Assembly (NCBI GenBank): GCA_000165345.1
Contig: CM000435.1
Coordinates: forward strand, 512,001 to 576,000
Direction of reading: 5' to 3'
Length of the DNA: 64,000 nucleotides
The notes under the pieces are model-generated. The model did not search any database. It was given only the letters and a program-made list of their open reading frames with translations, and was not told where the DNA came from. The position numbers and the translations under genes were made by a program. Shown in pieces: positions 16,342-19,122 of the stretch (the first letter of the stretch is position 1; each line of letters begins with the position of its first letter).

Positions 16342-16645
16342 ATGCACAGCAACTTTAAGGCAGAGCCTTTTCCATTATTCGTCTCTACTCAAAGTTTTCT
16401 TCCAATATCGATGATTCTCTCGCTTATTTGTAAGTTTGATTGTATTTTTTTAAAAATTTGGTTAAGTATTATTTATGTTTTATTCTCCAGCACTGGTATT
16501 TATATCGTTTTTCATTGTATATGAATTCAGATTCCCAAGATTAAAAAGAAGTTTAAAGGATGAACTAATTGTTTCATTTGCAGGATCACTTACTTTAGGC
16601 TTAGGGCTCACTTTTGCATTATTATCATTTGGTCTATATTTTTAG
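16342..16645 (+). CDS. TMEM258: TMEM258/OST5-like small two-TM subunit (oligosaccharyltransferase accessory), two exons
   Basis: Exons 16342-16429 and 16491-16645, with a 61-nt intron (GTAAGT...ttctccag) and phase 1 kept; 80 aa. The product ...FFIVYEF...LKDELIVSFAGSLTLGLGLTFALLSFGLYF aligns colinearly and end to end with the 79-aa human TMEM258 (...FFVYEV...[29 protein letters not shown], recalled from memory). Confidence 0.7.
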
Positions 16646-17039
16646 GTTTTAGATTTAGTTTCTTTAAGTACTTTATCTCAAGCATTACTGTAATTGTTTG
16701 AATTAAGACAAAATTTAAAAAAATTAACTAAAGCAGAAGATCATAGTTAGAGATTATTATGAAAGCAATACTGAAAAAAAAAGAATTACGAATAAATAAC
16801 ACTTTGATTTAAAAAAAAAAAAGAAAAAAAAAGACCAATAGGGATTTTGCGATAGTATGGGTTTAGAAAATTATAACTCTAGAATATTCCAATCTAACTT
16901 CACCTCTTTTCTATTCGCCGAATATACTTGCATTTGACATTTTAAGCATTAATTTGTCCAATTCATTGTCTTAATAACCGGTAACCCCACACATTGAGAC
17001 AATATGTTAACCAATTATGATTTGTTAAATAGTGCGCTA

Positions 17040-17620
17040 AATTTAGTTAACCTTATTTAATTTCTCCTCACACTGGTGTCTCCCAAAAGTTATGATTTCT
17101 TTCGTCACTTTTTCGATTTTATATTTAACAGGCTCGACTCGGAGTATTATTTATCTCCGATAACCTAAACCGACTTAAACTTTTATAGCGGGGGTTTTTG
17201 GCAAGTTATACCTCGTAGCTAGTTACGTCCCTAATTCTGGACTTAGCTGGTTAAATAAACTAAAATTGCTTTAGCCGTGCTAATACTAAATCTCGCTGGA
17301 TGCTCACAACCCACCTGAATTGGCAGGGTTTAGGTTCGCCCTCTACCAGCAAGTCGTATCTACTTGATACGTTTTTTTCGATAAAACCAATGTATCTCTA
17401 ATTCATATTTAGTGCCAGTACTTCGTAGTTTTTGGAATTGTGTGGGCGTCCTCAGCTTGGACAGTTGGGTGAGTCCGCGCAAAGTCTTTTTAGCCTTGTT
17501 GCTTTTGTACCACTTGACTTGTGCCGGCGATGTTGTGAACGTTTAACAACAGTTTGGAGTTAAAGGATCGTTTTCTGCGCAAATATTTGGAAAAGGGGAA
17601 ATCGCGGGATTTTATTTAGA
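17040..17620 (+). ncRNA. Candidate structured non-coding RNA locus (class unresolved, with telomerase-RNA-like features)
   Basis: No ORF of 60 aa or more in any frame from 16525 to 17739. Local G+C is about 40-53% in 60-nt blocks, against about 30% for the window. Hairpin 17139-17160 is followed by AACCTAAACC (17162-17171). GGTTTAGGTT lies at 17327-17336. Hairpin 17355-17371 is followed by T7. An Sm-like AGTTTTTGG lies at 17427-17435. A terminal hairpin with a GCGG loop lies at 17598-17613. The strand is not established. Confidence 0.3.
17355..17378 (+). terminator. Hairpin plus T7 run (possible Pol III-type or 3'-end signal)
   Basis: CGTATC-tactt-GATACG followed immediately by TTTTTTT. Read directly from the sequence; the function is inferred. 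Confidence 0.2.
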
Positions 17621-17739
17621 TATATTTAATGTAGAAATAAATAAAACAAAATTAGATTTACCAAAAGGGTTTGAATCATTATTTTTACTATGTTAGAGTT
17701 TATGAAGTATAGTTTTATCAGAAAACTGAATAAGCAAAC

Positions 17740-19122
17740 ATGAGTAATCAAGTTGGCTTAATTTATCCTCCATTTGAATTAAGAGCTACAATTGACAAGA
17801 CTGCCAGCTTTGTGGCGAAGAATGGGGAGGAGTTCGAGTCGAGAATACTTAGTGAATCAGGGAGTATTAAGTTTACATTTTTGAATAAGGACAATCCCTT
17901 TCATTTGTACTACAAGAAGCGAATTGAGGATTTTAAGAATGGAGTTTCTATTGACAACAGTGGGCCTACGATCCCGAGGGCAATATTGGATATGAATAGT
18001 AGGAAAGAGAAGCAAATAATTGCGGAAAAAGAGGTATTGATGTTAACATCTTTCAGTGGAGGCTTTGGGTTCATGGGAGGGGCTGTTATGGAGCCTGAAG
18101 AGCCTAGGAAGGATCAATATACAATTTCTCATCCTATAATTTCAATAAAGGATGAGTCAGTAATAAAAATTACAGCAATGTATTTGGCCAGGAATGGACA
18201 ATCTTTTTTATCAGATTTGACTGCTAGAGAGTCAAACAACCCTCAGTTTGACTTTTTGAAACCTGGGCACGCATTATTTGGATACTTTGCAGATTTAGTT
18301 GAGGCTTATTCACTCTGTTTAATTCCAAATAAGAGTTATTTGAGGGGAATGAAAAATGAGTCAGAGGATCTACAGGCAATTTTTAGACGTTGCTATAAGA
18401 ATAGTCTTTGGAGAAAGAAGGAAGTTGAAACAAACAGTGGCTTACTTGAATTAGAAAACAGGGATCATGTAGACTTGGAATGGGTCGCAATTAACATCGT
18501 TGAGACAGTTGATTTTGATGATTTGAATTTGGATCTTCCTGAACCAGTTGATTTTTCTATGCTTTCAAAGTTAGTTTTAGAGTCCTCTTTAGACATGCTA
18601 AATGAAAATGATAGGAATGATCTATTAGAAAGTGAAATTCAAAATGAAGAGAGACAGATTAATGTTTTAGTGATTGAGAAAGAACAAATAAATGATAATG
18701 TTTCTGATGAATTAAATAATACAAACAATGATGATGCTTTTGAAGAGGAATTTAAGAATATAAAAATAATTAAGAACTATGTTAGAGTGCCAAAAAAGAG
18801 GGGGCTTGTAACTAAATCAGAACAAAAAAAGAAAGGTAAAATGTACAGATGTCCAATTACAGGCCAATTGATACCTGACGAGGAAATTTCAAACCATATG
18901 AGGATTTTACTGCTAGATCCAAAATGGAAGCAACAGAAAGACCAGCTAGTTCAGAGAGCGCAGCAGGAATCCGCCCTAACAGCATCTTCAAATATAGAAG
19001 AAAACCTCATCGCATTTATTACAAAGCGTCCCGATCTTTTTGGTACAATTGAAGAAGCTGTAGCAGGAACCCATGGCTTTGAAGAGAATGGAGAAAAAAA
19101 TAAAAAGCAAAAATTTCAGTAG
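17740..19122 (+). CDS. SF3A1: Splicing factor 3a subunit 1 (SF3A1/Prp21)
   Basis: 460-aa ATG ORF. Two SURP modules (IYPPFELRATIDKTASFVAKNGEEFE and IKITAMYLARNGQSFL...QFDFLKP) and the PRP21-like C block YRCPITGQLIPDEEISNHMRILLLDPKW. It lacks a C-terminal ubiquitin-like domain, as yeast Prp21 does. Confidence 0.9.
   Translation: MSNQVGLIYPPFELRATIDKTASFVAKNGEEFESRILSESGSIKFTFLNKDNPFHLYYKKRIEDFKNGVSIDNSGPTIPRAILDMNSRKEKQIIAEKEVLMLTSFSGGFGFMGGAVMEPEEPRKDQYTISHPIISIKDESVIKITAMYLARNGQSFLSDLTARESNNPQFDFLKPGHALFGYFADLVEAYSLCLIPNKSYLRGMKNESEDLQAIFRRCYKNSLWRKKEVETNSGLLELENRDHVDLEWVAINIVETVDFDDLNLDLPEPVDFSMLSKLVLESSLDMLNENDRNDLLESEIQNEERQINVLVIEKEQINDNVSDELNNTNNDDAFEEEFKNIKIIKNYVRVPKKRGLVTKSEQKKKGKMYRCPITGQLIPDEEISNHMRILLLDPKWKQQKDQLVQRAQQESALTASSNIEENLIAFITKRPDLFGTIEEAVAGTHGFEENGEKNKKQKFQ

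Follow-up and report, generated by a model that had tools for sequence, protein, structure and literature searches.

The question raised by the spacer between an OST5-like gene and SF3A1 in Cryptosporidium parvum is whether it holds the gene for the telomerase RNA, which is expected to exist in this genus and is apparently unreported. The spacer lies in the 64,000 nt stretch of DNA analysed here (the window; positions 512,001–576,000 of CM000435.1 in assembly GCA_000165345.1; all positions given below are window positions), in which the product of SF3A1 is identical to a C. parvum protein. Telomerase RNAs diverge fast, and in each new lineage they need to be found from scratch. In the original prediction, which was made without database searches, an island at 17040–17620 that includes two telomere-like 10-mers was proposed to contain a non-coding RNA (ncRNA) gene on the + strand, with telomerase RNA as its probable identity, and this proposal came through every comparative test that was run. 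That there is a conserved structured RNA gene on the + strand at 17131–17378 is close to certain, and we regard it as likely, with good though not full confidence, that this is the C. parvum telomerase RNA gene, encoding an RNA of ~250 nt, a function that we infer from sequence comparison. The true element is narrower than the span that had been flagged, which mixes two things, the conserved RNA gene (with a box that extends up to 17401) and a G+C-rich, unconserved spacer at 17404–17620. The genes concerned are as follows.

OST5-like gene, ends at 16645: 5' neighbour of the spacer
17131–17378, + strand: candidate telomerase RNA gene body, 248 nt, conserved in 13 species
SF3A1, starts at 17740, + strand (the same strand as the candidate RNA): 3' neighbour of the spacer

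SF3A1 orthologues were used as anchors to recover the upstream spacer from 12 further species, making 13 Cryptosporidium species with C. parvum. Ten are intestinal (C. parvum, C. meleagridis, chipmunk genotype I, C. ubiquitum, C. canis, two lineages from Logan assemblies, C. xiaoi, C. bovis and C. ryanae) and the other three (C. serpentis, C. muris and C. andersoni) are gastric. Multiple alignment of the full spacer revealed a single, sharply bounded conserved block that runs from 17131 (GGCTCG) to the T-run ending at 17378, and the predicted ends of the RNA body were set accordingly, the 5' end at the first conserved base of G[GC]C and the 3' end at the end of the T-run. This 248-nt block was found in the same gene neighbourhood in 13/13 species, the deep gastric clade included, and the gene order OST5-like/RNA/SF3A1 is retained even in C. 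muris, the upstream OST5-like gene having been confirmed in C. xiaoi, C. meleagridis and C. muris only. Identity to C. parvum over the 12 species was:

RNA block: 52–96 %
SF3A1 coding sequence: 40–94 %
upstream 250 nt: 29–86 %
spacer towards SF3A1: 30–80 %

The RNA block is about as conserved as the coding sequence of SF3A1 and far more conserved than its flanks. C. meleagridis alone stands at the top of the flank ranges (86 % and 80 %, with 96 % in the RNA block), and in all species but the closest relative the flanking spacer shares 29–54 % identity with that of C. parvum. In 10/10 intestinal species, exactly 87 nt separate the 5' G from the end of the first hairpin domain. The distance from the end of the RNA to the start of SF3A1 is 0.33–0.40 kb in intestinal species versus 1.3–1.7 kb in gastric species. 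The C. muris RNA–SF3A1 spacer (L009:2657–4000) contains no open reading frame (ORF) of at least 60 aa. The two Logan assemblies (SRR31860986 and SRR31861040) hold the same locus, and their SF3A1, 76–78 % identical to that of C. parvum, clusters with no named species' protein.

A block found 5' of SF3A1, and in the same orientation, in every species might not be an RNA gene at all but SF3A1 promoter or 5' untranslated region DNA, in which the telomere-like words would serve as protein-binding sites of the 'telobox' type. Promoters of other eukaryotes do contain such words. However, in the gastric species 1.3–1.7 kb separate the end of the block from the SF3A1 start, the stretch closest to SF3A1 is unconserved, and the second of the two words is altered in 4 species. 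The compensatory changes, the excess of G·U over A·C and the retention of folds despite diverged sequence that are described below are, moreover, constraints that act at the level of RNA, and we consider this explanation very improbable.

RNAalifold was run on 9 and on 13 sequences and returned the same architecture. The consensus order is a possible closing helix, a boundary hairpin, a free template, a hairpin with a UUUUGGC loop, a variable hairpin, an A-rich linker, a 3' three-way junction, and a terminal hairpin with a U-run. Pairing was counted on the uncorrected MAFFT alignment, with pairing partners slid by 1–3 columns as control together with 500 column shuffles, giving the following values.

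Cells forming a standard pair: 90.2 % in the proposed structure, 32–48 % when slid
Pairs changed on both sides: 13 in the proposed structure, 2–6 when slid
Covariation score: 0.249 in the proposed structure, 0.05–0.08 when slid

None of the column shuffles (0/500) reached the observed percentage paired or covariation score. The alignment of orthologous spacers with a test for compensatory changes, which had been put forward as a check, thus found the hairpins kept by compensation and the core of the template invariant.

There were 65 G·U cells versus 11 A·C cells, an excess which shows that the RNA is read from the + strand, as had been proposed, and the hairpin and T-run at the 3' end are on this strand in 13/13 species. 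Neither single-sequence nor alifold folding energies separate the strands. A telomerase RNA on the minus strand would have the reverse complement of 17327–17336 as its template, and that site does also read AACCUAAACC there, with the single-sequence folding energies of both strands being similar. In C. canis and the three gastric species, however, the site would read AACCUUAACC, the 65 G·U cells would turn into A·C mismatches, and the conserved hairpin and T-run would be on the wrong strand. Hence, we find a minus-strand gene hardly credible.

Identification of the + strand RNA as the telomerase RNA turns on its template. The telomere repeat of the source organism, which the original prediction had needed to contain TTTAGG, is TTTAGG in the published work in which it was used to find the telomeres of C. 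parvum (PMC8848321), and Cryptosporidium TERT sequences have been analysed earlier, so the genus has a TERT (PMC5405514). The template candidate and the helix that precedes it are:

17139–17160, + strand: hairpin UCGGAG-loop-CUCCGA, candidate template-boundary element, helix in 13/13 species
17162–17171, + strand: template candidate AACCUAAACC (1.67 repeats of CCUAAA), complementary to TTTAGG
17164–17171, + strand: invariant core CCUAAACC, 8 nt, identical in 13/13 species

The core, CCUAAACC, is the same in every species and is among the longest invariant runs of the alignment. The two bases 5' of it are AA in seven species, AU in C. xiaoi, C. bovis and the gastric clade, and GA in one Logan lineage, and the bases 3' of it are also variable. 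Complementarity to the telomere ends exactly at the edges of this 8–10-nt stretch and reaches the full 10 nt in 7/13 species. The stretch, unpaired in the RNAalifold consensus folds, is a single-stranded candidate template whose complementarity spans more than one repeat of the organism's own telomere. Judged by its letters, the pattern is that expected of one repeat plus a 2–4-nt alignment region with a boundary just upstream.

A helix of 6–10 bp, with a predicted boundary function, stands directly 5' of the template, separated by 1 nt from AACCUAAACC and by 3 nt from the invariant core. It has 6 bp in 13/13 species (with one mismatch in C. canis), and G-C pairs in it have been replaced by A-U and by G·U. 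It is lengthened to 10 bp with one mismatch in the gastric clade, and in the xiaoi clade its 5' strand is shifted by 5 nt with the total length unchanged. The layout of hairpin then template, which had been the basis for suggesting a telomerase RNA, has therefore been kept, with an unchanging core and a hairpin 5' of it that is maintained by compensatory changes. The coordinates originally assigned to the TCGGAG/CTCCGA hairpin (17139–17160), to AACCTAAACC (17162–17171) and its complement GGTTTAGGTT (17327–17336), and to CGTATC-tactt-GATACG (17355–17371) running into T7 (17372–17378) were all exact.

The telomere-type 10-mer has 2 copies in the window, one per strand, versus 0.10 expected, and two copies were seen in 0/100 dinucleotide shuffles, in agreement with the earlier view that the pair is unlikely to have arisen by chance. 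By itself, the 8-mer CCTAAACC does not stand out (3 copies seen in the window versus 1.32 expected). This frequency of the 8-mer favours the alternative that the block is a conserved structured RNA gene of some other function, such as an anonymous Cryptosporidium-specific intergenic ncRNA, in which the telomere-like stretch is a protein- or RNA-binding site or similar. A C. parvum small RNA sequencing study reports ~42 conserved ncRNAs of unknown function (PMC9465071), a number from which about one would be expected in the window, and the pseudoknot and the polymerase of a telomerase RNA are here predicted only. Against this, the match is invariant and single-stranded, ends at the limits of telomere complementarity, and lies directly 3' of a covarying helix; in 7/13 species it is 10 nt long, a length at which only 0.10 copies are expected per 64 kb. 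The size, layout and U-tail also fit telomerase RNAs, and no other family model matches, the RNA being without RNase P/MRP motifs, an H/ACA layout or a single-stranded Sm site. We consider an RNA of other function to be rather unlikely.

The search for other families covered the window and the 12 orthologous loci, and gave 0 matches to Rfam at gathering score, which is the outcome that the original prediction had depended on. The window also contains no tRNA. At E<=10, the region in C. parvum and C. muris returned noise only (CRISPR-DR40, mir-9 and Tombus_3_III). U1, U2, U4, U5, U6, U3, signal recognition particle and RNase P RNAs are listed, in the study cited above, as single-copy genes in C. 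parvum (PMC9465071). By inspection, the candidate has no GNAANNUC-type conserved regions of RNase P/MRP, neither the H/ACA nor the C/D small nucleolar RNA layout was seen, and only a short CUUUUGGC resemblance to U2 was noted; these identities were rejected. JGI (Joint Genome Institute) metagenome contigs scanned with the 23-nt 3'-domain pattern GGTTNAGGTTCGNCCTCNACCAG yielded three matches, all in contigs of 50–57 % G+C and without other features, and these were taken to be due to chance.

Downstream of the template, the consensus includes the following elements of a candidate core.

17188–17216, + strand: hairpin GCGGGG/CCUCGU, stem in all species, candidate first pseudoknot stem with a U-rich strand
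17195–17207, + strand: loop UUUU(U)GGCAAGUU, in which UUUUGGC is invariant
17217–17252, + strand: variable hairpin, sequence diverges and fold is kept
17263–17270, + strand: AAAAUUGCU in the A-rich linker, candidate 3' pseudoknot strand and partner of the loop GGCAAGUU (17200–17207)
17273–17276, + strand: AGCC, candidate partner of the 5'-terminal GGCU (17131–17134), predicted by RNAalifold

The stem at 17188–17216 is 4–7 bp long, with 4 in the bovis/xiaoi/ryanae clade and 7 in the gastric clade, and it changes from G-C to A-U in the gastric clade and from G·U to G-C or A-U elsewhere. In the variable hairpin 7/10 pairs change on both sides, and it also forms when each of 7 species is folded on its own (z-scores of −2.2 to −3.7). 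The sequence of the loop (GGCAAgUU) is complementary to that of the linker (AAaUUGCY). In the gastric clade the loop is GCUUgUU and the homologous downstream site is AAgAAGC, amounting to two adjacent A-U to U-A switches, and in chipmunk genotype I a G-to-U change mends the internal mismatch. A pseudoknot between 17200–17207 and 17263–17270 is suggested by these changes. The GGCU/AGCC helix, in which U-A becomes A-U in the gastric clade, would tentatively close the template/pseudoknot core in the modelled fold.

The 3' part of the RNA forms a separate domain, which also contains the second 10-mer.

17295–17350, + strand: 3' domain, a three-way junction with closing helix GCUGG/CCAGC
17308–17330, + strand: hairpin AACCC-A-CC / GG-CA-GGGUU, within the 3' domain
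17327–17336, + strand: second 10-mer GGUUUAGGUU, inside the 3' domain
17332–17342, + strand: mini-hairpin AGG-UUCGC-CCU, invariant, within the 3' domain

The same fold of this domain was the minimum free energy (MFE) structure in four divergent species folded separately, and its sequence, GGUU.AGGUUCG.CCUC.ACCAG, is nearly invariant. As modelled, the three-way junction is a candidate second, distal TERT-binding element.

The second 10-mer had been counted in support of a telomerase RNA, and this did not hold. C. canis and the three gastric species have GGUUAAGGUU (GGTTAAGGTT) in its place, and the 5' half of the motif is the 3' strand of the local helix AACCC/GGGUU, which is supported by covariation (gastric clade, C-G to U-A; xiaoi clade, U·G wobble). 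Neither the change in the second 10-mer nor those at the 5' edge of the template are ever compensated. These uncompensated changes together with the local helix mean that it is neither a second template, an identity that was rejected on its alteration in four species and its place in the helix, nor a demonstrable partner of the template.

Complementarity of 7–10 nt between the 3' domain (17327–17336) and the template (17162–17171) is kept in 13/13 species. That the two 10-mers pair as a helix, either structural or template-masking, so that their likeness to the telomere matters mainly via the pairing, would accommodate this observation; the single-sequence MFE structure of the C. parvum RNA does join both as a 10-bp helix, and chance would be unlikely to place an exact 10-nt complement within 250 nt. 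However, compensation is lacking, with AA in the template changed to AU or GA in 6 species and U in the second motif changed to A in C. canis and the three gastric species, the local helix that claims the 5' half of the second motif varies by C-G to U-A and U·G and is the MFE structure in four species, and the consensus fold leaves the template free. Matches of 7/8, as in the gastric clade, which is the outgroup, and in C. canis, have a chance of ~0.1. We view this pairing as an unlikely explanation, and a role of 17327–17336 in masking the template or mimicking its product is a minority hypothesis.

At its 3' end the candidate telomerase RNA gene has a terminator-like structure, and a group of conserved boxes lies outside the RNA body.

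17355–17378, + strand: terminal hairpin CGUAUC/GAUACG plus U7, candidate 3' end, with the shape of an RNA polymerase III (Pol III)-type terminator or La-binding tail
17384–17401, + strand: downstream box AAACCAATGTATCTCTAA, 18 nt, contains CCAAT, conserved in 13 species and unique in the window
17032–17042, + strand: upstream box GTGCGCTAAAT, candidate distal promoter element, at ~-99 to -89
17064–17082, + strand: upstream box CTCCTCACACTGGTGTCTC, candidate element of the PSE/USE (proximal or upstream sequence element) type, 67 to 49 nt before the RNA start
17105–17124, + strand: T/A-rich box TCACTTTTTCGATTTTATAT, candidate TATA-like element, 26 to 7 nt before the RNA start

The hairpin and T-run of the original prediction, the latter of 6–8 T, were found at the same place in 13/13 species, with one U·G wobble in C. 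ryanae; T-runs of at least 6 occur once per 610 nt in the window. The downstream box begins 3–6 nt after the T-run in 13/13 species (5 nt in C. parvum), whatever the distance to SF3A1. As this spacing is constant even in the gastric clade, where SF3A1 is >1.3 kb away, AAACCAATGTATCTCTAA is tied to the 3' end of the RNA gene, and it may be a 3'-end formation signal, a downstream control or another gene-linked element.

Of the upstream boxes, the most distal is kept as [GT]TGCGCTAA in the parvum-to-Logan clade, with TTGCGCC at ~-80 in gastric species and ATGCGG at -76 (C. xiaoi, C. bovis) or ~-103 (C. ryanae). The middle box, which holds the near-palindrome ACACYGGTGT and is unique in the window, keeps a constant distance from the RNA start throughout the parvum-to-Logan clade (seven species), with GTCTC-like remnants only elsewhere. 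The T/A-rich box is likewise conserved in the parvum-to-Logan clade, the gastric clade having TTATAAAG at ~-30 to -23. The gastric clade has TTGCGCC, CCGTCTTC and TTATAAAG at distances similar to those of the parvum-type boxes. Promoter roles for the three boxes are a prediction, and three further blocks conserved upstream in the parvum-to-Logan clade, CTTGCATTT (16927–16935, TGCAT-type), GGTAACCCCACA (16980–16991) and TTGAGACAATA (16994–17004), might serve the RNA gene as distal promoter elements. Ciliate and plant telomerase RNAs are transcribed by Pol III from type-3 promoters and have a T-rich terminator (PMC8287931), and the candidate RNA is possibly also a Pol III transcript.

Several other features of the flagged span belong to the spacer around the gene rather than to the RNA. 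The coordinates given earlier for the Sm-like AGTTTTTGG (17427–17435) and for GTGAGT (17469–17474) are exact; these motifs and the stems at 17531–17551 and 17598–17613, all of which had been listed as possible parts of the RNA, fall in the unconserved spacer at 17404–17620. The supposed stem with a GCGG loop corresponds to AATCGCGGG (AAT[CT]GCGGG) at 17600–17608, a word that most of the parvum-like clade retains, ~135 nt upstream of the SF3A1 start codon. Presumably, it resembles the E2F-type GCGGGA promoter word of Cryptosporidium. TAACC was present at each of the five positions previously listed (16975, 16982, 17008, 17048 and 17161); the window has 31 copies in 64 kb, and the five within 190 nt at 16975–17165 form its densest cluster. 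Except for the copy within the template, none is retained in C. meleagridis or chipmunk genotype I, and the cluster, being specific to C. parvum, is not a relevant feature and is probably without function. No ORF of at least 60 aa is present in the spacer (16646–17739), as had been stated, the longest being 44 aa. The reported enrichment in G+C is present, with 37–48 % in 60-nt blocks within 17160–17579 versus 32 % for the whole window, though the hand count of 38–53 % was slightly high and coding DNA nearby likewise has ~40 % G+C.

If the candidate is the telomerase RNA, TERT would hold it with the single-stranded 5'-(AA)CCUAAACC-3' in the active site, the 3' CC (or AACC) of the template would pair with the ...TTTAGG-3' chromosome end, and CCUAAA would be copied into one TTTAGG repeat. 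The helix UCGGAG/CUCCGA, 1–3 nt upstream, would then halt copying, leaving the bases 5' of CCUAAACC free to vary (AA, AU or GA) with the repeat unchanged. Together, the A-rich linker and the hairpin whose loop contains UUUUGGC would make up the catalytic-core pseudoknot, the 3' domain with its invariant three-way junction would serve as a second TERT-binding element, and the terminal hairpin and U-tail, a shape which is the product of Pol III transcription in ciliate and plant telomerase RNAs, would provide the 3' end and a La/LARP7-type binding site.

The accepted criteria for computational telomerase RNA candidates are a template, a boundary element, a core-closing helix, a pseudoknot and a T-rich terminator (PMC8287931), and the features of the candidate match these, the pseudoknot and the closing helix tentatively. 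Our confidence in the identification weighs the prior of one telomerase RNA gene in a 64-kb window (<1 %) against the chance, ~0.002 or less, of an unrelated conserved RNA having an invariant, unpaired, helix-flanked telomere template.

A number of points weigh against it. The locus was chosen for its telomere match, and the chance that some conserved RNA of 250 nt contains an 8-mer match is ~0.02, before invariance and single-strandedness are considered. One telomere repeat is presumably common to all of the species, so there is no co-variation of template and telomere to exploit. A shuffled downstream segment gives equal or better 8-nt complements to the pseudoknot loop in 50–80 % of trials, and hence we rate the pseudoknot as tentative; in addition, C. 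canis has one mismatch in it, and the double compensation was seen in one lineage. The core-closing helix is weak and, as aligned, is broken in the xiaoi/bovis/ryanae clade. The spacing of the upstream boxes differs between clades and is 29 nt off in C. xiaoi and C. bovis. Within the RNA body an internal U4 is invariant (U5 in C. parvum and C. meleagridis), which is awkward for simple Pol III termination at short T-runs. Finally, the expression of the RNA is, like its ends, polymerase, TERT binding, templating and pseudoknot, a prediction.

Comparison with known telomerase RNAs places the candidate nearest to the small ones. The telomerase RNA of Tetrahymena, at ~159 nt, has a boundary helix 5' of a template of ~1.5 repeats near its 5' end, a small pseudoknot, a 3' stem-loop and a terminal U-run. 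The candidate is like the ciliate RNA (Rfam Telomerase-cil) in its small size and proposed order of elements, and ciliates and apicomplexans are both alveolates. No sequence or covariance-model similarity was detected between the two, and the candidate differs in being ~90 nt longer, in having a 3' three-way junction instead of a single stem-loop IV, and in its internal U4–5 runs.

Plasmodium, in the same phylum, has a telomerase RNA of ~2 kb with templates for GGGTT(T/C)A. Compared by description only, this RNA and the ~250-nt candidate with its U-tail fall in different size classes and perhaps in different biogenesis classes. The Plasmodium RNA (Chakrabarti et al. 2007, via PMC2695484) is described as having a boundary element and template at its 5' end, as does the candidate. 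The plant and green-algal RNAs, which are transcribed by Pol III from type-3 promoters, are similar in size (~250–300 nt). They combine a template and pseudoknot core, for which a closing helix is possible, with a long 3' stem domain, upstream boxes and a U-rich terminator (PMC8287931), a layout that is also predicted for the candidate, though there is no sequence homology.

With the fungal Sm-class RNAs (TLC1 and TER1) the candidate shares a U-run followed by GG, namely UUUU(U)GG at 17195–17201. However, this U-run is in the loop of a hairpin supported by covariation and not between hairpins near the 3' end, and the candidate is ~5 times smaller than the fungal telomerase RNAs. No Sm site in a single-stranded context was found in the conserved RNA, and membership of the fungal Sm class was rejected, as AGTTTTTGG (17427–17435) is outside the conserved RNA and the internal UUUUGG is in a hairpin loop. 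The CR4/5 three-way junction of vertebrate and fungal telomerase RNAs is made up of P5, P6 and P6.1. The order of elements in the 3' domain of the candidate (a closing helix, a long hairpin, a very short invariant hairpin with a 5-nt loop and the closing strand) resembles it; no homology is claimed, and the 3 bp of the mini-hairpin, being invariant, offer no covariation.

A more particular proposal can be built on these comparisons, namely that Cryptosporidium has a miniature, U-tailed RNA of ~250 nt in the ciliate and plant style, possibly made by Pol III, versus the giant Plasmodium RNA, with a switch in type and biogenesis within the Apicomplexa, and that the G-strand copy GGUU[U/A]AGGUU in a TERT-binding 3' domain masks the template or mimics its product. 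In this full form we hold it to be doubtful, and on balance unlikely.

In the literature found on Cryptosporidium telomerase and ncRNA no telomerase RNA was named and the candidate was not identified. The group behind the plant, ciliate and insect RNAs reported that computational inference of the telomerase RNA failed for Apicomplexa (PMC9841428). Telomerase is not mentioned in the text of the C. parvum small RNA sequencing study, and the locus may already be listed there as an anonymous conserved intergenic ncRNA (PMC9465071). In that case, the identification would give a function to one of these ncRNAs. The alignment of 13 species is a basis for a covariance model with which to seek homologues in gregarines and coccidia. 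For the evolution of telomerase RNA, the candidate would bear on two questions, namely whether the small, U-tailed form is ancestral across both alveolates and plants, and at what point the very large RNA of Plasmodium appeared. For the biology of the parasite, it would be the missing core telomerase component of an important diarrhoeal pathogen, and one that is amenable to the existing CRISPR tools for C. parvum.

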